This document shows positions 51,289-63,914 of a stretch of DNA of 64,000 bases, piece by piece. This DNA is from an uncultured Planctomycetia bacterium (GTDB lineage Bacteria > Omnitrophota > Gorgyraeia > 2-02-FULL-51-18): positions 2,717 through 66,716 of the forward strand of contig CAZXLF010000002.1 of the NCBI GenBank assembly GCA_964642015.1. Direction: 5' to 3'. The translations under genes were made by a program, and so were the position numbers. The first letter of the stretch is position 1, and every line of letters starts with the position of its first letter. Below the pieces are notes generated by a model. It was not told the origin of the DNA, ran no database searches, and was given only the letters and a program-made list of their open reading frames with translations.

Positions 51289-52308
51289 ATGATTGCAGGC
51301 TATCAAAAAACCGTGAATAAAAAAATCAACTCATTAAATATTTCTATTTTTTTTGGGATCTTTTTTTTATGCGCTACAGTTAGCTACAGCATTGTTTATT
51401 CAAATATTCAGAATTTTTCTTTGTCTCCGGCAATGGGAAATCTGGACACGCAAATTTACCTATCAATGTACAAAGGAGAACCCGTCCAGCGCTATGAAGG
51501 ACGCCGCGTCTTAGTCCCTTTTTTGGCACGGTCCTTGCCTGATTTTCCGCCGTCTTTTTTTGCTAAAGACCACGAATTATCCGGATCATGGACGGCAATA
51601 GTAAAATTCGGAGTCGTTAATTATTTTTTTCTCACAGCCGCGGGAATAGTATTTTTTTACTACTTAAAACAGGCTAAGTTCTCAAATTGGGAATCTGTCG
51701 CCGGATGCCTTTTATTTTATTCGGCAAGGCCTGTGGTCCAGAATGCGGGCCTACCTTTGCCCGATGCGGCTTCGTATTTTTTCTTGGCGATCTGTTTTTA
51801 TTCTATTCAAGTCGAAAATAGATGGCTGCTTTTTGTTGGTTTTTTATTGGGCATTTTTGCGAAAGAATCTGTTTTTTTGGTGATCCCAGCGCTTCTTTTT
51901 TCAGAACATAAGCTTAGATCGAAAATGCTATATGTGCTTATCCCCGGGATTGTAACTTATTCGATTTGTCATTGCGCCATTGTCTTACCCAGACCCAATC
52001 TAACGAATATGCTTTTAGTTTCAGCGCGCTATTTTATTGATACTTTTACTCACGTGAATAGGCTGATAGATCTTTTTTCGTCATTCGGGTTGCTTTGGTT
52101 GCCGGCGTTTTTTTCATTAACATTTCCTGAATTGCCGATAGAGCACCGTCGATGGAAGTGGTTAATTCCATTTATGCTTGCTGTCATTTTTATTTTCAGC
52201 ATGAATCTTGGGCGGATATTATTTGTCGTATTTCCTGTCGTGATCCCGCTGTCATTATTTGGACTGCGCAGGTTTTTGGCAGAAAAAAGTCATGGCTCAA
52301 CGTCATAA
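51289..52308 (+). CDS. Polytopic membrane protein, hypothetical
   Basis: 339 aa with ~9 hydrophobic helices and no recognisable motif. Confidence 0.3.
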   Translation: MIAGYQKTVNKKINSLNISIFFGIFFLCATVSYSIVYSNIQNFSLSPAMGNLDTQIYLSMYKGEPVQRYEGRRVLVPFLARSLPDFPPSFFAKDHELSGSWTAIVKFGVVNYFFLTAAGIVFFYYLKQAKFSNWESVAGCLLFYSARPVVQNAGLPLPDAASYFFLAICFYSIQVENRWLLFVGFLLGIFAKESVFLVIPALLFSEHKLRSKMLYVLIPGIVTYSICHCAIVLPRPNLTNMLLVSARYFIDTFTHVNRLIDLFSSFGLLWLPAFFSLTFPELPIEHRRWKWLIPFMLAVIFIFSMNLGRILFVVFPVVIPLSLFGLRRFLAEKSHGSTS

Positions 52309-52361: not shown

Positions 52362-52658
52362 ATGGATACGAAAGATCTGATCTTTTCAAAAAATCCCAAT
52401 TTTGTCTTCCGCCAGATAGCCGGTGAGTCTTTATTGATCCCGATCCGAAAAAAACTGAATCAAGTGAACAGTCTTTACGTCTTAAATGAGACAGCGGCCG
52501 CTTTTTGGAACCGGTTGGACGGCCAATGCTCCATAAACCGCATTTTGAATGATCTCACGCAGGTATTCGATGTGTCACTCGAGCAACTTGAGCAAGATAC
52601 GTCAGTGTTGGTCCAGGATCTTTTGAGCATCGAGGCTATTCAAGAAGCCATTTCTTAA
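52362..52658 (+). CDS. PqqD-family RiPP recognition element (peptide chaperone)
   Basis: 'FRQIAGESLLIPIRKKLNQVNSLYVLNETAAAFWNRLDGQCSINRILNDLTQVFDVSLEQLEQDTSVLVQDLLSIEAI' is a strong PqqD pattern. Confidence 0.75.
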   Translation: MDTKDLIFSKNPNFVFRQIAGESLLIPIRKKLNQVNSLYVLNETAAAFWNRLDGQCSINRILNDLTQVFDVSLEQLEQDTSVLVQDLLSIEAIQEAIS

Positions 52659-52675: not shown

Positions 52676-53575
52676 ATGGATAAAATAGATCTAAAAATTC
52701 CCAGCCATTATCCACTTCACTGCCAATGGGAAATCACCTGTCGATGCAATTTGCGCTGTGTGATGTGCTACACCGATTGTTTTAATACGCCGCAAAAGAT
52801 CAAAGAAGAGCTGTCTACGGCGGAGATACTTCGGATCATGGGCGAGCTTGCTGAGGCGGGATGTCTTGAGCTGACGCTCACCGGAGGCGAACCTTTCGCA
52901 AGGCCTGATTTTTTTGAGATCTATGATTACGCGAAAGAAAAAGGCTTTCTTATCATCATATTTTCTAACGGAACCTTGATCACTGAAAAGATCGCCGATC
53001 GCTTTGCTATAAATCCGCCCGAGCGCATCGAAATCAGTTTTCACGGTCTTACCGAACGATCCTTTGAAGCGATCACAAAGGGGGCTGGTTCCTACCATAA
53101 ATGCCTGGAAGCGATCCGTTTGCTTCTGGAGCGCCGCATTCCGCTTGTCTTAAAAAGTGTGGCGATGACGGTCAACAAGGATGAAGTTCTGGCGATCAAG
53201 AAATTCTCTAAAGAGCTGGGGCCTGTGGTTTATCATCTCGGCGAAGAAATACGGATGGCCATCGACGGAGGTGAAGCGCCTTTTCAATATCAGCTTTCCG
53301 AGCAAGAACTTGAAACGATCCACCGGCAGGATCCGGCTATTTGGAAAGAGGCTTGTTGCAAAAAAGAGTCTCCTGTACCTGTTTGTCAAAGCGCGAGGCA
53401 AAATTTTCACATTGATGCCTATGGGCAGCTTCAACGCTGTTCGGGTAACCGCTTGGCGAGCTATGACCTGCGCTCAGGCTCATTCAAAGAAGGTTTTTAT
53501 CGATTTCTTCAAGATTTTCCTTGTCCGGCAAAGTGCAATGAAGCGGTAAAAACGGAAATTTATGGGTTGTTATGA
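52676..53575 (+). CDS. Radical SAM enzyme with a C-terminal Cys-rich SPASM/twitch-like domain (rSAM-1)
   Basis: 'CQWEITCRCNLRCVMCYTD' carries the CX3CX2C motif. The C-terminal Cys run is 'CCKKESPVPVCQSA...RCSGN...CPAKC'. Confidence 0.75.
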   Translation: MDKIDLKIPSHYPLHCQWEITCRCNLRCVMCYTDCFNTPQKIKEELSTAEILRIMGELAEAGCLELTLTGGEPFARPDFFEIYDYAKEKGFLIIIFSNGTLITEKIADRFAINPPERIEISFHGLTERSFEAITKGAGSYHKCLEAIRLLLERRIPLVLKSVAMTVNKDEVLAIKKFSKELGPVVYHLGEEIRMAIDGGEAPFQYQLSEQELETIHRQDPAIWKEACCKKESPVPVCQSARQNFHIDAYGQLQRCSGNRLASYDLRSGSFKEGFYRFLQDFPCPAKCNEAVKTEIYGLL

Positions 53576-54693
53576 TCTTAAATCCGAATAAGATCTCCAA
53601 AATGGAATATGGTGATTTTAGTCTTAACATTCATGAGAAGGCCGGCACAGAATGCGTGATCAAAGCGCAGATGGAACTTACTTACCGCTGCAATCTCCAT
53701 TGCCGTCATTGTTATACCGACCCTTTCAATCGTAAGGAGTATTTCCCTAAAGAAATGGAATTGGCGGAGGTTAAAAGGATTCTTGATGAAATGGCGGCGT
53801 TGGGGATCTTATGGCTTAACTTCACCGGCGGCGAAGCGTTGATGAGAAAGGATTTCTTTGAGATCTATGATTACGCGTGGGCTAAAGGTTTTATTTTGAC
53901 GCTTTATACCAACGGCACCATGATCACTGAATCGGTGATCAACAAATTAAAAGATAAACCGCCGTTTTTTATCGATGTCTCATGTCACTCGATAACCGAA
54001 GAGAGTTTTGATTGGTTTACGCAAGTCAAAGGGTCGTTTCGTCATTTTCTCAAGAGCATGGAACTCTTGAAAGCGAGCGGCTTGCCTTTCCGGATGAAAA
54101 CGATCGGGATGAATTGGAACAAGAAAGAGCTGCCGTACATAAAGGAATATGTCGAATCTTTTGGGATTTCCTTTCATCCAACCACAGCTCTTTATCCAAG
54201 ATTAACCGGCGATCTTGAGCCTTTGAAATTGAGGCTTTCTCCTGAGGAAGCGGTCGATCTGCAGGTTGGATCAGAGGTATTTCAGGAAGATGAATGTCTT
54301 GACTCAGACTCTGTTTACAGCACTATTCCAAACCGACTTTATCGCTGTACTTGCGCGACTAATGCGATCCATATCAACGCATGGGCGGAACTTGGCACCT
54401 GCGGGTTGGAATATGAGGCCAGAGCTTCTCTTCGAGAATATTCTTTAAAGGAGGCTATCTCACAGGTTTTTGAGAAAGTTCGCTCGCTCAGGTTTGAAAC
54501 AAACACACCTTGCCGGGATTGTTCGCTATTCTCATTTTGCAACAAAAAGCCGACCTCTGCGCGTTGGGAATTCAAAGACCCCCAGAGGGCGAATCCTTAT
54601 GAATGTGATGTAGCTTTTTTAAAAGCGTCGCGGTTAACAGGTAAAACACAAATGCACCCGTTAAAAAAAGAGGAGAGTGGCTATGCCGGATAA
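53572..54693 (+). CDS. Radical SAM enzyme with a SPASM-like C-terminal domain (rSAM-2)
   Basis: 'YRCNLHCRHCYTD', and C-terminal 'CTCATNA...GTCG...CRDCSLFSFC'. It is paralogous to rSAM-1 ('FFEIYDYA..KGF...ysNGT.IT'). Confidence 0.75.
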   Translation: MILNPNKISKMEYGDFSLNIHEKAGTECVIKAQMELTYRCNLHCRHCYTDPFNRKEYFPKEMELAEVKRILDEMAALGILWLNFTGGEALMRKDFFEIYDYAWAKGFILTLYTNGTMITESVINKLKDKPPFFIDVSCHSITEESFDWFTQVKGSFRHFLKSMELLKASGLPFRMKTIGMNWNKKELPYIKEYVESFGISFHPTTALYPRLTGDLEPLKLRLSPEEAVDLQVGSEVFQEDECLDSDSVYSTIPNRLYRCTCATNAIHINAWAELGTCGLEYEARASLREYSLKEAISQVFEKVRSLRFETNTPCRDCSLFSFCNKKPTSARWEFKDPQRANPYECDVAFLKASRLTGKTQMHPLKKEESGYAG

Positions 54694-54865
54694 AAAGAAG
54701 TACATTACGCCTCAAATATTTGAGGTCCCGTTAAGGCAAGAACAGGCTGTGCTTACTAGTTGCAATACTAATTGGTCCAATTCTACATCCGGCGGAAATG
54801 GCAAGTGCACCAGCGGTGGATGTAAAAATGGAGGAGGGACCAATAATGCAAACCCTCCATCTTAA
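54683..54865 (+). CDS. Candidate RiPP precursor peptide, 60 aa: MPDKKKYITPQIFEVPLRQEQAVLTSCNTNWSNSTSGGNGKCTSGGCKNGGGTNNANPPS
   Basis: A Shine–Dalgarno 'aggagag' lies 7 nt upstream of the ATG (an alternative GTG is at 54677). The charged/hydrophobic leader is followed by a Gly/Ser/Thr/Asn-rich core with 3 Cys, 1 Trp and 2 Lys. The gene sits between rSAM-2 and the kinase. Confidence 0.7.
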   Translation: MPDKKKYITPQIFEVPLRQEQAVLTSCNTNWSNSTSGGNGKCTSGGCKNGGGTNNANPPS

Positions 54866-54889
54866 ACGCTTATTTCAAGACTAGTCCAA

Positions 54890-55783
54890 ATGCTGATTTC
54901 ATTGGGGATTGGCGGCTATAAAGTTTCAATAGAAGAGCCTAGAGATCGTTTCTGCTTTTTTTGGCCTCTTGCTAGATTTGAACCATTTCTTTCTAATGAA
55001 ACAGCGAATTCAGATATCACTGTTAAAGTCCATATCGTTAAAAAACTAGCAGTGCTTAATAATGAAAATTTGATCTTTGATTCCGGAATAGGTTATTGGA
55101 AACTTTATGATAATGGGCCTAAGGGTTATTTATTTGAAAGTTGCCGTGCAGAGAATGGCCGGCTTTTTTTGCAAGCGGCCATATCGCATGATCTTTCAGA
55201 GGTTGAAGTGACCGTCAAAGAAACCCGCATGAAAGGTAGTGCGCGCGGCGGTTGGGGGCCTGCCACTATTATCAGTCCGCTTCTCGAATTTGTGCTTCAG
55301 GAGAAACTTGCTAGAGATGGCGGCGTGATGCTTCACAGCTCCGCAATATTGGCAGAAAATGAAGTGCTTGTTTTTTTTGGCCCTTCCGGTGCCGGTAAAT
55401 CAACAGCGGCAAATTTTTTTCTGAATAAAGGATATACAGTTCTCAATGATGAGCGCGTGATCATCCGGCGGGAAGGCGACGAGTTTAAAGCATATGGTAC
55501 TCCATGGCCCGGTTCAAGTTTTCTTTATTCGGGTGCACAGGGTCGAATGAGACAGATTTTTAAAATCGGCCATGGGCAGGGAAAGCATATGTTAAATAAA
55601 ATGTCGACCAGAGTAATGATGGCCACTTTATTTCAAGAGGCCTACTTGCCCCATTGGACCGTGATGGGAATGGATAAAACAACTCGTTTTTTTGAGGAAC
55701 TGGCAACTACTTTTGGTTCTCTTGAACTTTTATTTTGTAAATCTTCGGATATCGTTGACTTCCTAACAGAAATTTTTTTTTAA
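54890..55783 (+). CDS. HprK-related P-loop kinase (HPr kinase C-terminal-domain-like)
   Basis: 'VLVFFGPSGAGKSTAANFF' Walker A. Its size and context match 7961..9028. Confidence 0.55.
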   Translation: MLISLGIGGYKVSIEEPRDRFCFFWPLARFEPFLSNETANSDITVKVHIVKKLAVLNNENLIFDSGIGYWKLYDNGPKGYLFESCRAENGRLFLQAAISHDLSEVEVTVKETRMKGSARGGWGPATIISPLLEFVLQEKLARDGGVMLHSSAILAENEVLVFFGPSGAGKSTAANFFLNKGYTVLNDERVIIRREGDEFKAYGTPWPGSSFLYSGAQGRMRQIFKIGHGQGKHMLNKMSTRVMMATLFQEAYLPHWTVMGMDKTTRFFEELATTFGSLELLFCKSSDIVDFLTEIFF

Positions 55784-55796
55784 TGCGAGTCATTTA

Positions 55797-56843
55797 ATGA
55801 AAATTTTAAACGAGAATATTCTCTATCAATCCGTCGCTTTAGGTTCAAAGACCGAAAAGATACCTTCAAAAGTTTTATTTGAGTTAACTTATGGCTGCAA
55901 TTTCCGCTGCGTACATTGTTATAATCCCACACATCAGGCGCGGCCTGAAGAGCTTTCAACAAAAGAAATACATCGAATCTTAAATGAAATTGCAGACTTG
56001 GGTGTTTTATCTATCATTTTTACAGGCGGGGAATTATTTACACGTCCTGATATTTTAGAAATTCTCGAGCATGCCAAGCGATTAGGGCTTTTAATCGACA
56101 TTTTTACCAATGCGAGCCTGTTAACAGACTTGATCGTTAAAAGGCTTGATGAATTAGGGATCCGCGACATGGTCGTTTCGATTTATGGAACGACTCCGTC
56201 CACATTTGAAAAGGTCACTCGTCAAGCGAACTCTTATGAGCGTTTCTTGCGTGGAATCGTGGCGCTTGCAAAATCCTCTTTGAATGTCCACATTCGAATT
56301 CCTCTATTAACTTTGAATAAACATGAAGCCGAGACCGCCAAACTGTTTGTCGAAAGTATGGGATTTCCGTTTCGCTTTTATCTTGAAATTGAGCCTCGCC
56401 AAGATGGTAATCAAGAACCGTTGCAGTACAATCTTAATGCGGGTGAAAAAATGGATATTTTAAAAAGATTACGTCCAGAGGCTTTGGAAAAACCTCCTTT
56501 TGAAGAAAAGCAATTTTCAACGGATTTTATTGAATGCGCTTGCGGTAAGGAACAGTTCGCAGTGACTCCCTACGGAAAAATGAACTTTTGCGTTTCTTTT
56601 CCAACACCGAATTATGACTTGCGCTGCGGTACCGTCAAAGAAGGCTGGCAAATACTTCAGAAATTGGTCCGAGAAGCTAAACCCAATGAAAATTATCATT
56701 GTCCTGGCTGTGACGTCCGGTCGTTTTGCCAGCAAGGTCGTAGCGATGCCTGGCTCGAAACAGGCGACATGAGCGTATGCCTCCCACGTTTTAAAGAAGC
56801 CGCCACTCTTCATAAGACAGCGGTCATTCATAAGACGATCTGA
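55797..56843 (+). CDS. Radical SAM enzyme with a SPASM-like C-terminal domain (rSAM-3)
   Basis: 'YGCNFRCVHCYNP', and C-terminal 'CACGKEQ...CVSF...RCGT...CPGCDVRSFCQ'. Confidence 0.75.
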   Translation: MKILNENILYQSVALGSKTEKIPSKVLFELTYGCNFRCVHCYNPTHQARPEELSTKEIHRILNEIADLGVLSIIFTGGELFTRPDILEILEHAKRLGLLIDIFTNASLLTDLIVKRLDELGIRDMVVSIYGTTPSTFEKVTRQANSYERFLRGIVALAKSSLNVHIRIPLLTLNKHEAETAKLFVESMGFPFRFYLEIEPRQDGNQEPLQYNLNAGEKMDILKRLRPEALEKPPFEEKQFSTDFIECACGKEQFAVTPYGKMNFCVSFPTPNYDLRCGTVKEGWQILQKLVREAKPNENYHCPGCDVRSFCQQGRSDAWLETGDMSVCLPRFKEAATLHKTAVIHKTI

Positions 56844-56955: not shown

Positions 56956-57777
56956 ATGATCAATCTGTTACAATCCACGGAATCAGATGGAAGATTTTCC
57001 TTGCAAGAAATAATACAAACAGAGGATTCCGATCTGTCGCTTACTTTTAAGACGGCTGGTTGGAGCATGTTTCCTACGTTAAGGAACAATGACTGCATTG
57101 AGCTTTCGAGAATCCAAGATTACGAAGTAGGAGATCTTGTTGTTTTTCGTCAAAATAACAGGTTAATTTGCCACCGCATCTCAGAGATTCATTTGAATGG
57201 CCGGATACGGACGAGTAGTATCGGAGGTGAACATTTCATTCGGCAAAACGATATTTTGGGCAAAGTCAATTCGATCATTCGAGGCAAAAACCATTTTTGT
57301 CCTTCGAAAACCCAGAAAAAACTACAACTATTCGATCGTTTTTGGATCCATTTGAATATAAATTTAGAAACTATTCAGAATAAGTGTCGTGAATTAATGT
57401 TTGATGTATTTGTTTTGATCAACCGGATCCTGATCTTTAATCAGATCATTTTATTTTTTATGAATAAAAACGTTCACTATTCGATCGGTTCTAAAGCTCA
57501 GGTTGGTCCATTGGATTGCTACCGATTGATTCCTGTTCAGAAAAAGCTCACGCAAGGTTCGATGATTGCGTTAAAGGAAAGTCTAAAAAATGGTAAAGAC
57601 TGTTCAATCCTTGTCGCGCAATTGGCAGGACGTTATGCGGCGACTTTTGAATTTGCTTCAGGCAAAGTATGGCTTCATGACCGTCTAAAAATTACGAATT
57701 TCAAAGCAGAGATTTCACGCTTTGCAGAAAAACTGTGTCACGAATTGAAAGGATATTGTGAACTTAGCGGTGATTGA
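56956..57777 (+). CDS. S24/S26-type serine peptidase domain (signal-peptidase-I/LexA-like) fused to a ~180-aa uncharacterised C-terminal domain; candidate leader peptidase
   Basis: 'TAGWSMFPTLRNNDCIELSRIQDYEVGDLVVF' matches the G-x-SM-x-PTL catalytic-Ser box of S26/S24 peptidases. Confidence 0.5.
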   Translation: MINLLQSTESDGRFSLQEIIQTEDSDLSLTFKTAGWSMFPTLRNNDCIELSRIQDYEVGDLVVFRQNNRLICHRISEIHLNGRIRTSSIGGEHFIRQNDILGKVNSIIRGKNHFCPSKTQKKLQLFDRFWIHLNINLETIQNKCRELMFDVFVLINRILIFNQIILFFMNKNVHYSIGSKAQVGPLDCYRLIPVQKKLTQGSMIALKESLKNGKDCSILVAQLAGRYAATFEFASGKVWLHDRLKITNFKAEISRFAEKLCHELKGYCELSGD

Positions 57778-58558
57778 AGCAACAAATCTAACAAAAACCT
57801 ACTCAGCCGGCACGGGATTATTGGACTGGCTTTTTCGGAATTCATCTATGAAGCCAAAAACAACGGCTCTCAACGGTGTAAATTTACGCATCGAGAAAGG
57901 CGAAATCATCACTTTGCTTGGGCCTAACGGCGCAGGCAAAACGACCCTCATAAAAATTTTAGCCGGTCTTATGACTCCGGACAGTGGTAACGTTAATATT
58001 TGCGGTTTTGACACGGTCAAAGATCTTGCGAAAACTAAACAGTGCGTGAGTCTAGTGCTGGGTGAAGAGAAGAGTTTTTACTGGCGGCTTACAGGACGTC
58101 AAAATCTCGAGTTTTTTGGAATTCTTTACAATCTTTCAAGAGATCGCATCCGCCAAAAGATCAAACAGGCGGCCGAGCTTCTTGACCTCGATCTGGACAA
58201 ACGCTACCAGGAATGTTCGACGGGTATGAAATTTCGTCTGGCGCTGGCGCGTGGATTTTTGAGCGATGCAAAATTGATCCTGATGGATGAACCGACTAGA
58301 AGTTTGGATCCTAATGTAGCAAACCGGCTGAGGGAATTGATCAAAACAATGCGTAACGAGAAAGGATGCGCGTTTTTTTTCGCCACACACGATGTCCATG
58401 AGGCCGAAACGGTCGCCGATAGGATTGTAATCTTGGATCAGGGAAAGATCAGGGCAAGCGGAAGATTGAGCGATCTAAGAAATATTTTAGGGAACAATGA
58501 GGCATCAGTGGAAGATATCTTTCAGCGTGTGACCATCGAGGATCAGTATGTTTTTTAG
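57758..58558 (+). CDS. ABC transporter ATP-binding protein
   Basis: Walker A 'GPNGAGKTT', Q-loop, signature-like 'CSTGMKFRLALARG', Walker B 'ILMDEPT'. Confidence 0.8.
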   Translation: MNLAVIEATNLTKTYSAGTGLLDWLFRNSSMKPKTTALNGVNLRIEKGEIITLLGPNGAGKTTLIKILAGLMTPDSGNVNICGFDTVKDLAKTKQCVSLVLGEEKSFYWRLTGRQNLEFFGILYNLSRDRIRQKIKQAAELLDLDLDKRYQECSTGMKFRLALARGFLSDAKLILMDEPTRSLDPNVANRLRELIKTMRNEKGCAFFFATHDVHEAETVADRIVILDQGKIRASGRLSDLRNILGNNEASVEDIFQRVTIEDQYVF

Positions 58559-59357
58559 AAAATTTTTTGCGATCATATACCGCGATGCGCTCGAAGCATT
58601 AAGTTACAAAACCGCATTTTTTACCGATTTATTAGCGATGACAGCACAGCTCTTGATCTTCTTTTTTGTGGGGCGCATGATCGGGCCGCAGGCAGCCCCG
58701 TTTCTTAGTGAATATGGCGGTGAGTATTTTCCATTCGTGCTTATTGGTATTGCTGTCGCAGGGTTTTGTATGGCCGGTACGAACAGCTTCACTGGTACGA
58801 TCATGAAGGAGCAGGGCGACGGAACGCTTGAGGCCATTTTTGTGACCCCGACCTCTCTTGGTGTATTCATGTTCACGGGATTTATTCGGACATTCGTTTC
58901 AAGCTCCTGTCGGGTATTTGTGTTTTTATTGATGGGGTTGTTATTTTTTAAGATACGTTTACCTATGGTTAACATCCCGGTTTTCTTGCTTCTTCTGGTC
59001 TTGTCGATGGTCGTTTTTGGAAGTTTTGGGCTTTTTTCAGGAGGAGCATTGCTCGTGCTTAAAAGAGGTGATCCTTTCACGCATTTGTTCAATGCCGCTT
59101 CTCGTTTTCTTGCAGGCGTTTATTTTCCTGTTACGCTTCTGCCGCTGTGGCTTCAAAAGGTTTCTTTATGGATGCCGATGACCTATGCGCTTCAGGCGAT
59201 AAGAAAGGCGGTTCTAATCGGTGCCTCTGTTCATGATCTGCAGGCGGAGATGATCACACTGGCGCTTTTTTCGGCCGTTTTATTTTTTTGCGGCATAGCT
59301 TTTTTTAACTGGTGTTTTGAGAAAGCTCGAAAGGAAGGATCCCTTGCTTTCCGCTAA
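58548..59357 (+). CDS. ABC-2 type transporter permease
   Basis: 269 aa with six TM helices. Its start overlaps the ATPase gene end. Confidence 0.65.
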   Translation: MFFRKFFAIIYRDALEALSYKTAFFTDLLAMTAQLLIFFFVGRMIGPQAAPFLSEYGGEYFPFVLIGIAVAGFCMAGTNSFTGTIMKEQGDGTLEAIFVTPTSLGVFMFTGFIRTFVSSSCRVFVFLLMGLLFFKIRLPMVNIPVFLLLLVLSMVVFGSFGLFSGGALLVLKRGDPFTHLFNAASRFLAGVYFPVTLLPLWLQKVSLWMPMTYALQAIRKAVLIGASVHDLQAEMITLALFSAVLFFCGIAFFNWCFEKARKEGSLAFR

Positions 59358-60285
59358 ACCATTTTTGGAAGAAACTTTTTCCACGAACCACTTGGATTAC
59401 GAACGTGTGCTTACCCGAAACCGCAGGAGGCTTGATTTCCTTTTGGAGCTCGAAAGCGATCTAGCGATGGAGAACGTTGATCTTTTACCTTTAAAAGGGA
59501 TGGATCTTTTAATACGCGCTTATCCCTCGCTGGGAATGCGCCCGATGACTGATATTGATCTCCTCATCCATAAAAAAGACATCCCAAAAGTGAAGCGGTT
59601 GCTGGAGCATAAAGATCTGCAATGGTCCGCTGATGAGAACCTTAGCTACTATGACCCCAATTCTTTTATCATTTTAGATATCGTTTGGAATGTCTGGTAC
59701 ATGCCGGACTCGCGGCCGGTTTGGCAGCGTTCATCGCTTTATGCGACAAATGAAGGCAAAGCATTAAAATTGATGCATTCCGAAGATGCTTTGACCTATT
59801 TGATCGCTTATACGATAGCGCATCGCACAGAAATAAATTCTATTTTTTTACAAGACCTCAAATTTTTTTTGGATAAAGAATCCCATAAAATTGATTGGGA
59901 CCACTGGGCTTCAACAGTGAAAAACCTTCACTTAGGCCCAACAGTTTTTTATGGGTTGTCTTACGTCAGAAAAAGTGGGCTCGAAAGCATTCCGGAAGAA
60001 ATAGTTTGTAAACTTCGTCCAACCTCCTATGCGGAAAAAAAATTAAATTTTTATTATCAAAATGTTTTGGAACTAAAAAAAAAGCCGGCGAATTATTTGC
60101 GGACTTGGCTAAGTTATCCGGGATGGAGAGGTAAAATAAAGCTATTACGTATTAAATTTTTGCCTTCCAAATGGCAATTTGAATTGCGTTTTGGACGAAA
60201 AAGCTGGTTAAAATACCTGATTTTTTGCTTCGCCCATCCTTTCTGTGTATTATTCCGTGCCCTCACTGGCCCTTTTATTGAATAA
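59317..60285 (+). CDS. Nucleotidyltransferase family protein, PF14907-like
   Basis: 'VDLLPLKGMDLLIRAYPSLGMRPMTDIDLLIHKKDIPKV' carries the same motif as 4421..5572 and 10261..11358. Confidence 0.55.
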   Translation: MRKLERKDPLLSAKPFLEETFSTNHLDYERVLTRNRRRLDFLLELESDLAMENVDLLPLKGMDLLIRAYPSLGMRPMTDIDLLIHKKDIPKVKRLLEHKDLQWSADENLSYYDPNSFIILDIVWNVWYMPDSRPVWQRSSLYATNEGKALKLMHSEDALTYLIAYTIAHRTEINSIFLQDLKFFLDKESHKIDWDHWASTVKNLHLGPTVFYGLSYVRKSGLESIPEEIVCKLRPTSYAEKKLNFYYQNVLELKKKPANYLRTWLSYPGWRGKIKLLRIKFLPSKWQFELRFGRKSWLKYLIFCFAHPFCVLFRALTGPFIE

Positions 60286-60726: not shown

Positions 60727-62085
60727 ATGCTGATTAGCGCTCGAACGAAGGGGATGATTGTCCCGTTCTTAAACTCATTTTTTATTTTAGGTATTACGAT
60801 AGCTTATGCAGCTGATATGCAATCCGGAATTCAATCCAATAGCGGACAAAATTTTGCTACAATACAGAATGCAGAGAAATATACAATCCAACCGCAGGAT
60901 AAACTTAATATTCAAGTGGCAGGAGAAAATGACTTGTGCGGAGTTTTTGTCGTAGGTCCTCAAGGGGATATTAACTACCCGCTTTTGGGAGCCGTTTATA
61001 TTCAGGGGCTTTCTTTGGGAGAGGTGAAGGATTTTTTGACAGATAGTCTCGGCAAGAAGTATTTGGTGAATCCGCGGGTACAGGTCACATTCTCTGAAAT
61101 GCCTCAACGTTCGATATCAGAAAAATCTTTGCCCGCAAGCGTTCCTACAGTCCCATCTATTCAAGATGTGTTAGCCAAAGTTCAAAATACAAAATCGGAT
61201 AACTCACAAGATTTGAAATCAGAGATCATGAGCATGATAACCCCATCTCCAGCAACCAAAGCAGAGTCTTTGATGAATTATAGCGACGCTGGAGCAACTA
61301 GTTTTGATAGCGATATTATCGACACGGGGGACAAATTGAACATTCAAGTTTATAAAGAGCCTGATCTCTCCGGCGTTTTCAGCGTGAACTCTTCAGGTAA
61401 GATCAATTATCCGTTGCTCGGTGAGGTTTATGCTCAATCGCTTTCGCTAGAAGAACTCAAACAGTTCCTTTATGACAAATTGAATGAAAAATATGTTACA
61501 AATCCTCAAATTGAGATTACGATCACAGAAAGCTCTACTAAATCTGTTTCGATGCTTGGTCAGATCAACAAGCCGGGCAATTATATTTTGACACATCACC
61601 TTACGCTTTTAAAATTGATCTCTCAGAACGGGGGCTTTACTCCTGATGCGTCGACTAAAAATGTCCGTATTGTCAGAACCAATGGTGACGGAAAAAAAGA
61701 GACTTTGGAAGTTGACGTTGATAAGGTAATTCAAGGACTAGCCGATGATGTGATCCTGAGATCAGGGGACATTATATTTGTGGATTTCAGGAGTAAGGAA
61801 GAAGTTAAGAAAGAAGTTGCAAAGAATTATATTACCCTCTTAGGGCAGGTAGCAAAGCCGGGGAATTATTTCTATAGCCCAAAGTTGACGTTGATCCGCC
61901 TGATCGGCGAAGCCGGAGGTTTTTCACCTTCAGCTGCGACTAACAGAATAAAGATCGTACGCAATGGTAAAGATGGTAAGCAGCAGATTTTATTTGTGGA
62001 TGCCGGGCGGATCATGGGCGGCGGTGTGAAGGATCTTGAGGTGGAAGAAGGGGATCTTATTATTGTGCCTGAATCTTATTTTTAA
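60727..62085 (+). CDS. Polysaccharide export protein, Wza-like, with duplicated Poly_export/SLBB modules
   Basis: Signal peptide, then two 'PDY.L.pGD.L.I.V'-like blocks ('YTIQPQDKLNIQVAGENDL', 'IDTGDKLNIQVYKEPDL') and SLBB-like 'GDIIFV'/'GDLIIVPESYF'. Confidence 0.6.
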   Translation: MLISARTKGMIVPFLNSFFILGITIAYAADMQSGIQSNSGQNFATIQNAEKYTIQPQDKLNIQVAGENDLCGVFVVGPQGDINYPLLGAVYIQGLSLGEVKDFLTDSLGKKYLVNPRVQVTFSEMPQRSISEKSLPASVPTVPSIQDVLAKVQNTKSDNSQDLKSEIMSMITPSPATKAESLMNYSDAGATSFDSDIIDTGDKLNIQVYKEPDLSGVFSVNSSGKINYPLLGEVYAQSLSLEELKQFLYDKLNEKYVTNPQIEITITESSTKSVSMLGQINKPGNYILTHHLTLLKLISQNGGFTPDASTKNVRIVRTNGDGKKETLEVDVDKVIQGLADDVILRSGDIIFVDFRSKEEVKKEVAKNYITLLGQVAKPGNYFYSPKLTLIRLIGEAGGFSPSAATNRIKIVRNGKDGKQQILFVDAGRIMGGGVKDLEVEEGDLIIVPESYF

Positions 62086-62093
62086 GAATCGAT

Positions 62094-63914
62094 ATGCCAG
62101 ATAATGATGAATTAGCCAAGAATTCTGCAATCATGATGTCGGATGAGATGCCGTCCAATGATTGGTTGGAGTATTGGTACGTTTTTTTGGCACACGCATG
62201 GATCATCGGAGCTATTACGACGGTTTTTTTTATCGTATCGGCTTTCCATTTTTTTAGTCTGCCTAATCTTTATACGGCTACGACCACGATCTTAGCTTAC
62301 CCGGCCGATAACCCTATCCAGCAATCATCCCATCAAGATGTCCAAACGCCTACGTATGGCCAAGAGGAGGAATATTACGGCACACAATTGGCTATTCTGA
62401 CCGGTATGGAAGTCGAAGAAGAGGCCATCAAAGAGCTTGGAGGCAACGTAGCCGATTATACGGTCAATGCCGAGCATGTGCATGACACAAGGATCCTATC
62501 GTTATCCGTGACCCATCGCGATCCTGAGGTCGCTGCCAAAGTAGCTAATAAGTTCGCCGAGGTCTTTGTGAGGGAAAGTAAGCGTGAAGGCGCATTCATC
62601 GGACAGCAGATTTTAAAATTCCTGCCAGATGATCAGAAAGTCTCAAATCCGAATCCTGTTTTGCAAGCCGGGGGCGCATCGGGAGATAATCTGTCTGGGT
62701 TCAGTAAGCAGGAATTTGCTTCATCGTTAGTGAATGTCTCCAATGACCCTCAGATCCAGCAGCTTAGAAGTGAAAAGCTAGGGATTCTTTCAAAGTTGAC
62801 CGAATTATCACAGCGATACAAATCCGAACATCCGATAATTCTCGATTTAAATCAGCGTCTGGGTATTATTGAAAATGAGATCAAGGCAAGGACCGAAACC
62901 ATATTGAGCAATGTTAAGGCGAACCTTGCTGGCGAGACGAACGTGACGAACATTAAGGTATTGCAGGAAGCCCGCGTTCCGTCAGGCCCCTCTCAGCCCA
63001 ATCGTTTTAAAGGCATTCTTTTATGGACGCTCGGAGGGTTTTTTATCAGTACTTTTTTTGTGTTTCTATTCGAGTTTTCTAACCAAAAGATACGCGATGA
63101 ACATGACGCGACAGCCATGGGTCTGACTTTTTTAGGTTACATCCCCTTGACTAAGGATTTCTTAGTTAGACGCCGAACTAGTGGCTATCATCCAGAAGAT
63201 GTGGATCTGATCAAAGTGCTTAAATCCAATTCTACTTTAGCTGATTCAGTCGCTAATGCGCGCACACATATCCTTTTTTCGATGCCTTATGAAAAGTCGC
63301 GACGCATCATGTTGACAAGCGCTATACCTGGTGAAGGTAAATCAACGCTTGCAGCGCTACTAGCTATTTCGTTGACCACTTTGGGAAGGAATATCTTGTT
63401 GATTGATGCGGATCTAAGAAAGCCTTCTCTGCACAGGTATTTGGGTTTTAGAAATGAAAAAGGATTGACCGATTATCTTGTTGGAACAGCTACGCTGGAT
63501 GAGGTCGTTCAATCTTTGAAAGGTAATTCTTTACAAATGATCACAGCGGGGTCCATATCCCCTAATCCCTCAGAACTATTATCTTCCGAAAGGTTTCGTG
63601 AGCTTTTGGATAAATGCGGAGAACGATTTGATAGGGTCGTCATCGATGTTCCTCCGGTACTGTATATTCCCGATGGGCTTATTGTTGCCAAAGTCGTTCA
63701 TACGGGCATTTTGATCTGTGGAGCCGGTATGGTGCATAAGAGAACTATTCAGCAGGTAAAAGAAAAATTTGATTCAGTAGGTTACTCATTTATCGGCACG
63801 ATCATTAACCGTGCCGATTTTGACAGACAAGCTTATCGCTATAAGTACTATGGTAATTATAAGAGTTATTACAATACCGCGCGTCAGCAACCGATTGTTA
63901 TTCAGCATCGTTGA
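62094..63914 (+). CDS. Polysaccharide co-polymerase / BY-kinase (Wzc/ExoP-like), with a Wzz domain, a Walker ATPase and a Tyr-rich C-terminal tail
   Basis: Two TMs flank a periplasmic domain. Walker A is 'AIPGEGKSTLAALLA', and there is a DxD motif. The C-terminal tail is 'YRYKYYGNYKSYY'. Confidence 0.6.
   Translation: MPDNDELAKNSAIMMSDEMPSNDWLEYWYVFLAHAWIIGAITTVFFIVSAFHFFSLPNLYTATTTILAYPADNPIQQSSHQDVQTPTYGQEEEYYGTQLAILTGMEVEEEAIKELGGNVADYTVNAEHVHDTRILSLSVTHRDPEVAAKVANKFAEVFVRESKREGAFIGQQILKFLPDDQKVSNPNPVLQAGGASGDNLSGFSKQEFASSLVNVSNDPQIQQLRSEKLGILSKLTELSQRYKSEHPIILDLNQRLGIIENEIKARTETILSNVKANLAGETNVTNIKVLQEARVPSGPSQPNRFKGILLWTLGGFFISTFFVFLFEFSNQKIRDEHDATAMGLTFLGYIPLTKDFLVRRRTSGYHPEDVDLIKVLKSNSTLADSVANARTHILFSMPYEKSRRIMLTSAIPGEGKSTLAALLAISLTTLGRNILLIDADLRKPSLHRYLGFRNEKGLTDYLVGTATLDEVVQSLKGNSLQMITAGSISPNPSELLSSERFRELLDKCGERFDRVVIDVPPVLYIPDGLIVAKVVHTGILICGAGMVHKRTIQQVKEKFDSVGYSFIGTIINRADFDRQAYRYKYYGNYKSYYNTARQQPIVIQHR

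Follow-up and report, generated by a model that had tools for sequence, protein, structure and literature searches.

How many radical enzymes does one short peptide need? The question is raised by a 64,000-nucleotide stretch of DNA from an uncultured Planctomycetia bacterium (contig CAZXLF010000002.1; hereafter the window), in which genes for three radical S-adenosylmethionine (SAM) enzymes, denoted rSAM1, rSAM2 and rSAM3, are found around a single gene for a small, cysteine-containing peptide. The region in question, 52676-56843, has the start of rSAM1 and the end of rSAM3 as its exact limits. An earlier sequence-only reading had taken the three proteins for duplicated copies of one enzyme, all serving the adjacent peptide and each forming the crosslink of one of its three cysteines. 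It had also remarked that most characterised clusters use one radical SAM enzyme, which we accept. Its description turns out to be essentially right, and its mechanistic guess largely wrong.

The three genes probably encode non-redundant radical SAM maturases of a conserved cassette for a ribosomally synthesised and post-translationally modified peptide (RiPP). Three distinct radical SAM enzymes around one cysteine peptide gene recur almost unchanged in at least 80 genomes, and therefore this predicted peptide-natural-product pathway is, to judge by its sequence conservation, a real and hitherto undescribed one.

Conservation and arrangement of the cassette

The core cassette recurs in at least 80 species-level genomes of Nitrospira/Nitrospiraceae, Omnitrophota, Rokubacteria and Elusimicrobia. 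Most hosts are metagenome-assembled genomes of Nitrospira or Nitrospiraceae, and the closest homologues of the window proteins are named Omnitrophica/Omnitrophota. In essentially all 80 loci the genes follow the order PqqD, rSAM1, rSAM2, precursor (one to three copies), ScmC-like protein, rSAM3, PF14907 protein and S26-like protein. PqqD is directly upstream of rSAM1 in 74 related loci, and all three radical SAM genes are present in 73 of the 80, the other seven being short contigs that end inside the cassette. This fixed synteny ties the three enzymes to the adjacent precursor, as had been supposed. The PF14907 gene belongs to the cassette in nearly all related loci and is also found in a distant cassette (L084). 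An ATP-binding cassette (ABC) transporter adjoins the cassette only in some non-Nitrospira loci (the window, L017, L068 and L077).

In the window the cassette comprises ten genes in an operon-like block, head to tail on the + strand between 52362 and 60285, which overlap or are separated by short gaps:

52362..52658, +, stand-alone PqqD-family RiPP recognition element (RRE), 98 amino acids (Pfam PqqD, 50.3 bits against a cutoff of 23.4)
52676..53575, +, rSAM1, radical SAM enzyme with a truncated, twitch-like C-terminal domain, 299 amino acids (Pfam Radical_SAM, 88.6 bits)
53572..54693, +, rSAM2, radical SAM enzyme with a divergent SPASM-like domain, 373 amino acids (Pfam Radical_SAM, 81.5 bits)
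54683..54865, +, precursor peptide gene, 60 amino acids from ATG (placed between rSAM2 and the ScmC-like gene; homologous open reading frames in related loci)
54890..55783, +, ScmC-family P-loop protein of PEPCK/HPr-kinase fold, putative peptide kinase, 297 amino acids (PF27840)
55797..56843, +, rSAM3, radical SAM enzyme with a near-threshold SPASM-like domain, 348 amino acids (Pfam Radical_SAM, 88.2 bits)
56956..57777, +, S26-like protein (SipW/archaeal-type signal peptidase I), putative leader peptidase, 273 amino acids (Pfam Peptidase_S24, 25.7 against 23.3)
57758..58558, +, ABC transporter ATPase, DrrA-like (Pfam ABC_tran, 95.2 bits; TIGR01188 (drrA), 201.6 bits, under its cutoff)
58548..59357, +, ABC-2 type permease (Pfam ABC2_membrane, 48.7 bits)
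59317..60285, +, PF14907 nucleotidyltransferase (Pfam NTP_transf_5, 95.1 bits against 31.2)

The rSAM1 and rSAM2 genes overlap by 4 nucleotides, and those of the ABC ATPase and ABC-2 permease by 11. The public call of the PF14907 gene begins at 59344, which gives a protein of 313 amino acids. Scans for promoters and terminators returned no more sites than shuffled sequence did.

Three radical SAM enzymes

All three proteins score some 50-60 bits above the Pfam Radical_SAM threshold (PF04055, 29.5 bits), and pairwise BLASTP among them gives identities of 34%, 36% and 27% (E = 3e-54, 5e-48 and 8e-41). The CX3CX2C motifs reported earlier (CNLRCVMC, CNLHCRHC and CNFRCVHC) are all found, in three + strand open reading frames with the limits listed above, and place the cysteines at C24/C28/C31 in rSAM1, C40/C44/C47 in rSAM2 and C34/C38/C41 in rSAM3. 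Orthologues of each gene were taken by best hit from 80 species-representative genomes and aligned, the window protein included (rSAM1, n=78; rSAM2, n=81; rSAM3, n=71). CX3CX2C and GG(E/D) are invariant in every aligned sequence of the three families, the latter as GGE throughout rSAM1 and rSAM3. The block 'F.EIYDYA...G(F/L)......NGT.IT', which was said to be shared by all three, is present literally in rSAM1 (FFEIYDYAKEKGFLIIIFSNGTLIT) and rSAM2 (FFEIYDYAWAKGFILTLYTNGTMIT); in rSAM3 the region is homologous but diverged (ILEILEHAKRLGLLIDIFTNASLLT).

Each protein was also credited with its own cysteine-rich C-terminal region, and this holds, as the cysteine patterns differ among the three and are conserved within each family. 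The accompanying label 'SPASM-type' is looser, since no SPASM model reaches its threshold in any of them; rSAM2 and rSAM3 are better called SPASM-like and rSAM1 twitch-like. Against TIGR04085 (SPASM, cutoff 27) rSAM3 scores 24.7 and rSAM2 16.7, with no match for rSAM1, and Pfam SPASM (PF13186, threshold 21.5) matches rSAM3 only, with 14.1. The seven-cysteine SPASM motif, which can supply ligands for two auxiliary clusters, has the form CX9-15GX4C ... CX2CX5CX3C ... C. In rSAM2 and rSAM3, which have two putative auxiliary cysteine sets, the CX(n)GX(n)C, CX2CX5C and distal cysteines are present and the canonical fourth cysteine (X3C) is absent, with a CxC pair instead. The conserved C-terminal cysteines are eight in rSAM2 (C242, C259, C261, C277, C314, C317, C323 and C345, in 80-81 of 81 sequences) and seven in rSAM3 (C247, C249, C265, C302, C305, C311 and C328). 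Of the 71 aligned rSAM3 sequences, 66 have a further, upstream auxiliary cysteine; in the window copy this position is K238 (window 56508-56510), so that Aux I may have an open or non-cysteine coordination site in this lineage. The rSAM3 of the Omnitrophota locus L017 also lacks this cysteine.

rSAM1 carries only the first half of the SPASM motif. One set of auxiliary cysteines is conserved, namely C227 (64 of 78), C237, C255 and C283, the last of which aligns with the first cysteine of CX2CX5C, and the protein ends about 16 residues later in all orthologues. Its C-terminus thus has the features of a twitch domain, i.e. a truncated SPASM-like domain with predicted ligands for a single auxiliary cluster. 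The sequence-only reading had allowed that a copy short of cluster-binding cysteines might be a pseudo-enzyme. rSAM1 does lack the second auxiliary set, but the loss is ancient: all orthologues share the truncated, twitch-like end. The alignment therefore indicates that rSAM1 is a different type of enzyme, with predicted ligands for one auxiliary Fe-S cluster, and not a decayed copy.

The AlphaFold2 model of rSAM1 (pLDDT 83) has the sactisynthase SkfB as its best structural match (E 4e-16), followed by PqqE, viperin, MoaA, BlsE, SuiB and anSME. In a sequence search of the PDB, matches to rSAM3 were confined to its N-terminal radical SAM core. The rSAM3 C-terminus gives weak matches to QhpD, SCIFF-maturase, CXXX-maturase and PapB models (E 4e-4 to 2e-2); taken alone, this domain scores 18.1 against a cutoff of 425 for the SCIFF maturase and 14.2 against 340 for PapB.

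Together, the invariance of CX3CX2C and GG(E/D) and the conservation of auxiliary cysteines family by family make all three look like working enzymes. Pseudo-enzyme status was considered for each copy and rejected on the invariance of the two motifs.

Two further features of rSAM1 were observed. Four extra cysteines outside CX3CX2C and the twitch-like domain, C16, C22, C35 and C143, are near-invariant (73-78 of 78 orthologues); they are encoded at window 52721-52780, with the motif CQWEITCRCNLRCVMCYTDC, and 53102-53104, and may be ligands of an additional metal or cluster site. The public gene call for rSAM1 (L001 9267-10004) begins at an internal methionine, 54 codons late, and gives 245 amino acids, with residues 1-54 and CX3CX2C lost. 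The conserved open reading frame encodes 299 amino acids from the ATG at 52676, and the part missing from the public call is window 52676-52837.

Origin of the three enzymes

The three had been called paralogs that arose by duplication. They are homologous, and paralogues in the wide sense, but the duplication was neither recent nor local. In a neighbour-joining tree rSAM1, rSAM2 and rSAM3 each form a tight clade across Nitrospira, Rokubacteria, Elusimicrobia and Omnitrophota; these clades do not group as sisters, and the branching inside them is broadly congruent. With rSAM1 as the query, 1.84 billion representative proteins yielded 559 clusters at E <= 1e-30, and many of these outside proteins (about 360 amino acids) score 190-216 bits against rSAM1, compared with 169 for rSAM2 and 151 for rSAM3. 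Recent tandem duplication is rejected on these two grounds. As the families are monophyletic with broadly congruent internal branching, the sequences indicate that the split predates the spread of the cassette, and that the three genes have since moved as one unit.

The nearest outside relatives of rSAM2 (P0224) and rSAM3 (P0188) are both on contigs of less than 3 kb. The latter again follows an ScmC gene.

Precursor peptides and the number of cysteines

The window precursor is a peptide of 60 amino acids, MPDKKKYITPQIFEVPLRQEQAVLTSCNTNWSNSTSGGNGKCTSGGCKNGGGTNNANPPS, with three cysteines after the leader. Its likely start is the ATG at 54683, 8 nucleotides after a GAGGAG; a GTG is also present at 54677. 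The peptide has no NCBIfam or Pfam match, and no second copy is found in the window. Homologues occupy the same position in related loci in one to three copies each, giving 105 open reading frames in all. The leader KKPYxxPQLFRVELNQEQAILSAC is common to the family, and its first cysteine is invariant and usually part of C-S-L. Between the cysteines the cores are hypervariable and rich in Ser, Thr and Asn. Nitrospira precursors have a D-S-G-x-R-x-S tail, and the last residue is Ser in 100 of the 105 copies.

If there were one enzyme per cysteine, each radical SAM protein would form the thioether crosslink of one core cysteine. The window precursor has exactly three cysteines after its leader, and three is the commonest count in the family (68 of 105 copies). 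However, 26 copies have five cysteines and six have seven, and these 32 precursors come from loci in which there are always three radical SAM enzymes. Loci with two or three different precursors likewise have three only. Characterised sactisynthases, AlbA among them, form several bridges with one enzyme, iteratively, which also speaks against such a division of labour.

There are also simpler sister cassettes. In L085 and L086 a PqqD protein, one radical SAM enzyme and ScmC accompany a peptide with three cysteines, and in L082 the same set, with an ScmC-like protein, accompanies a peptide with two; the distant ScmC-containing cassettes with a single radical SAM gene have no further such gene in the locus. 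Their peptides have two or three cysteines and all end in Ser (...ASCAKTPSICHFHGHLQQTKS, ...GCKLVSGGFAPMAVPCMANGCSGIGS and ...GCKTQAVGTAGFGNGKAVCTFPRQCYGAGS). The distant cassette L084 has a single radical SAM gene with S24 and PF14907 genes, and no peptide gene has been called there. One enzyme per cysteine is contradicted by the single-enzyme cassettes with peptides of two or three cysteines, and we regard it as decidedly improbable.

Across L002-L081, just downstream of rSAM2, precursor cysteine counts are nearly always odd numbers (3, 5 or 7; 100 of 105 copies), which suggests one fixed N-terminal cysteine to which pairs of cysteines have been added. Many Nitrospira loci have two or three divergent precursor copies in tandem.

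Predicted leader recognition and the use of three enzymes

In none of the three enzymes is there room for a fused N-terminal RRE, because CX3CX2C begins at residue 24, 40 and 34, respectively. None has a recognition domain of its own. The stand-alone PqqD protein would bind the conserved leader (KKxYxxPxhFxVxL...EQAhL) and present the peptide to the three enzymes, either in turn or as one complex. This PqqD protein scores under every NCBIfam equivalog cutoff, including those of the PqqD, ScmD and lasso PqqD models.

A single PqqD protein serving three enzymes without recognition domains could also be part of a hetero-oligomeric maturase. Chemistry would then be left to one or two of the radical SAM proteins, and the others would act mainly as scaffold, peptide clamp or electron conduit, as for TrnC/TrnD of thuricin CD (PMC12093266). 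The 4-nucleotide overlap of rSAM1 and rSAM2 suggests translational coupling, which would suit such a complex. Against this, none of the three families shows any variation in CX3CX2C or GG(E/D) over a wide phylogenetic distance, and it can be argued from this that each enzyme still cleaves SAM. We therefore consider a division into catalytic and supporting subunits unlikely, and favour three non-redundant maturases.

Accessory genes and the C-terminal serine

The S26-like protein matches TIGR02228 (archaeal signal peptidase I) with E 2.2e-6. Kept across related loci are GWSMFPTL, the catalytic serine box (SM.PT), and ICHRI, a CHR(I/V) motif in which His replaces Lys, as in SipW and archaeal enzymes; a GD box is found in most relatives and not in the window copy. 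An S24/S26 gene is also present in the distant single-enzyme cassettes L084 and L087. The residues before the invariant first cysteine of the precursors are L or I at -3 and A, T or S at -1, which fits the -3/-1 rule of signal peptidase I. Since these residues fit the rule for S26 enzymes, cleavage may be placed just before the invariant cysteine.

The P-loop protein is assigned to the Pfam ScmC family PF27840 (a precomputed match), as are 50 of its 52 listed homologues. When a profile of this family was compared with the PDB, most matches were to generic P-loop proteins, and weak, longer ones were to HPr kinase and PEPCK. HPr-kinase homologues phosphorylate the C-terminal serine of the precursors of the lasso peptides paeninodin and pseudomycoidin, and in pseudomycoidin an uncharacterised NTP transferase adds a hexose to the serine phosphate (PMC6993621; PMC8498205). 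The present cassette likewise combines an HPr-kinase-type fold with an accessory nucleotidyltransferase and a precursor whose last residue is Ser. Because a kinase fold, an uncharacterised nucleotidyltransferase and a C-terminal serine occur together as they do in the lasso module, the near-invariant serine and the kinase-fold and PF14907 genes suggest, by analogy, a lasso-type C-terminal phospho(glyco)sylation.

Proposed pathway

Gene content, conservation, catalytic motifs and folds are observed, and from them we infer every chemical step that follows. After presentation by PqqD, the three radical SAM enzymes would install different radical modifications and not one crosslink each. The most likely set would be cysteine-derived thioether bridges into the Ser/Thr/Asn-rich core, along with at least one other type of reaction or regiochemistry. 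The ScmC kinase-fold protein would phosphorylate the near-invariant C-terminal serine, and the PF14907 enzyme would decorate the serine phosphate, as PsmN does on lasso peptides after PadeK/PsmK. The S26-like peptidase would cut the leader at L-x-(A/S/T)|C, so that the invariant cysteine becomes the new N-terminus, and the ABC-2 pump would export the product.

In favour of this reading is the modelled likeness of rSAM1 to SkfB, a twitch sactisynthase, and also the weak sequence resemblance of the rSAM3 C-terminus to the SPASM domains of thioether-forming maturases.

Several points weigh against it. SPASM models are sub-threshold for all three enzymes and no radical SAM protein of the cassette reaches the cutoff of a curated family, so that each reaction type is a guess. 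The neighbour-joining tree carries no support values. Pfam Hpr_kinase_C gives no match to the P-loop protein at E <= 0.01; the likeness of ScmC to HPr kinases is at the level of the fold only, and phosphorylation is argued purely by analogy and co-occurrence. The window precursor has no DSGxRxS tail and ends in NANPPS, with the terminal serine alone kept. Most Nitrospira loci have no adjacent exporter, and secretion is therefore not assured.

It is possible, and we propose it tentatively, that the cassette is the signature of an undescribed RiPP class, widespread among nitrite-oxidising Nitrospira and found in Omnitrophota, Rokubacteria and Elusimicrobia as well. In such a class one free-standing recognition protein and one precursor would be combined with three radical SAM enzymes that differ in mechanism (one of twitch type, two SPASM-like), to give a crosslinked peptide that is phosphorylated, with or without glycosylation, on its C-terminal serine.

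Neighbouring genes

Directly 5' of PqqD (51289-52308) there is a gene for a multi-pass membrane protein of 339 amino acids, with no Pfam match and no counterpart in the 80 related loci, which may be a lineage-specific addition or unrelated. Genes annotated by Pfam as SAM synthetase (MetK) and S-adenosylhomocysteine hydrolase are found on the same contig at 45155-47612, 5-7 kb upstream of the three radical SAM genes. Although close to a SAM-consuming cluster, this pair is probably housekeeping.

Downstream, polysaccharide-export genes (Poly_export/SLBB and Wzz/CbiA-type) adjoin the cassette at window 60727-63914. Such genes are beside the cassette in other phyla too (L024 18472-19221+ and L060 14225-16776+), and also in L085 (6384-7196), and Peptidase_C25 genes flank three distant ScmC cassettes (L085-L087). 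The cassette may thus have a recurring link to cell-surface or exopolysaccharide loci. Just past the end of the window, after the Wzz/CbiA-like gene, is a second stand-alone PqqD-family gene (L001 20373-20669, approximately window 63944-64240), followed by a gene for a membrane-anchored protein of 246 amino acids. Another recognition-element-dependent system may begin here.

Significance

Radical SAM RiPP clusters nearly always have one maturase, and three distinct ones kept together across phyla imply three non-redundant radical reactions on one short peptide. New peptide chemistry is therefore likely. If the proposed pathway is true, it would for the first time connect radical SAM crosslinking with the C-terminal phosphorylation module, which until now is known from lasso peptides alone. 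The C-terminal serine and the kinase-fold and PF14907 genes give a concrete prediction that can be tested by mass spectrometry. Nitrospira is a key group of nitrifiers in soils, freshwater and wastewater plants, and the product could matter for competition or signalling in nitrifying communities. Orthologue sets, the precursor family and the simpler sister cassettes with one radical SAM enzyme are a resource for experiments. The cassette is of the radical SAM/PqqD RiPP kind and of ScmC type. It is well suited as a target in the search for natural products, the more so for its frequency in Nitrospira.

Comparison with known systems

NCBIfam and Pfam scans placed none of the radical SAM proteins, the PqqD protein or the precursor in a curated equivalog, and relatives of rSAM1 are equally unplaced. 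A three-enzyme cassette of this composition was found in no curated family and in no paper of the open-access literature searched; papers on RRE mining do not mention the relevant terms, and the PQQ-like cluster of the WasteFams preprint differs from the present cassette.

The pyrroloquinoline quinone (PQQ) and mycofactocin systems resemble the cassette in pairing a stand-alone PqqD-family chaperone with a radical SAM enzyme that has no fused RRE (PqqE/PqqD and MftC/MftB). MftC and PqqE are among the top hidden Markov model (HMM) and PDB sequence matches of the present enzymes, and the MftC model aligns almost full-length on rSAM2 (residues 25-337, 100.9 bits against a cutoff of 265). It could thus be asked whether the product is a peptide-derived cofactor and not a secreted, crosslinked peptide. 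The enzymes would then turn the conserved C-terminal tail into a small redox-active molecule, with excision and glycosylation to follow. The PqqD chaperone, the conserved DSGxRxS tail, the lack of an adjacent exporter in most Nitrospira loci and the wide retention of the cassette within Nitrospira would all suit such a role. However, the scores are far under the cutoffs (PqqE 69-86 against 381; MftC 86-101 against 265), the window peptide lacks the tail motif, and exporters are present in the window and other non-Nitrospira loci. Unlike PQQ and mycofactocin, the present cassette has a hypervariable, cysteine-rich core and multiple precursor copies, and such a core with one to three divergent copies is what bioactive RiPPs, rather than cofactor precursors, typically show. 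We hold a cofactor pathway to be very improbable, the least probable of the alternatives weighed here, and keep to a modified peptide as the product. Membership of the PQQ or mycofactocin families was rejected, as the PqqE and MftC cutoffs are missed. To our knowledge, the kinase-fold, PF14907 and S26-like accessory genes are not those of pqq or mft clusters.

The nearest curated system is the SynChlorMet (SCM) cassette (TIGR04248-04251; ScmC/D/E/F). The two share a PqqD-family protein, an ScmC-family P-loop protein and the presence of several PqqE-like radical SAM/SPASM proteins. SynChlorMet has two radical SAM/SPASM proteins, whereas the present cassette has three, one of them twitch-like, and adds an S26 peptidase, a PF14907 gene and an identifiable precursor with a C-terminal serine. 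All SCM equivalogs are missed (ScmC 18.6 against 125; ScmD 24.2 against 100; ScmE 92.4, 56.3 and 80.2 against 400; ScmF 76.7 and 68.0 against 400), and with four models far under cutoff SCM membership was rejected.

The maturases of thuricin CD and ruminococcin C carry their own N-terminal recognition domains. Thuricin CD (TrnC/TrnD; PMC12093266) and ruminococcin C (RumMC1/RumMC2; PMC8188230) likewise have more than one radical SAM/SPASM maturase in a single RiPP cluster and cysteine-containing precursors. Each has two enzymes, while the present cassette has three that are mutually distant (27-36% identity). Thuricin CD has two precursor peptides (PMC12093266); here there is one precursor, and one stand-alone PqqD is common to the three enzymes. 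Models of sactisynthases are all under cutoff (StsB 87.9, 77.3 and 96.5 against 625; AlbA 59.2, for rSAM2, against 850; SkfB 59.3 and 57.4 against 300).

Among single enzymes, SkfB (PDB 6EFN) superposes on the rSAM1 model with a template modelling (TM) score of 0.69 over 288 columns at 22% identity. The two are alike in their truncated C-terminal domain, single auxiliary cluster site (predicted in rSAM1) and cysteine-containing peptide substrate. rSAM1 differs in having no N-terminal peptide-binding domain, and in its extra conserved cysteines (C16, C22, C35 and C143).

The remaining comparison is with lasso peptides. No domain of a lasso cyclase (the Asn-synthetase-like C protein) or B2 protease is found in any gene of the cluster, and a lasso-peptide cluster was rejected for this reason. 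The present kinase resembles HPr kinases only at the level of the fold or by weak HMM matches. The lasso phospho(glyco)sylation module (PadeK/PsmK and PsmN) likewise has an HPr-kinase-fold protein, an uncharacterised nucleotidyltransferase, a PqqD-type element, a YxxPxh leader and a precursor ending in Ser (PMC6993621; PMC8498205). Where lasso clusters have a cyclase and a B2 protease, the present cassette has radical SAM enzymes in their place.

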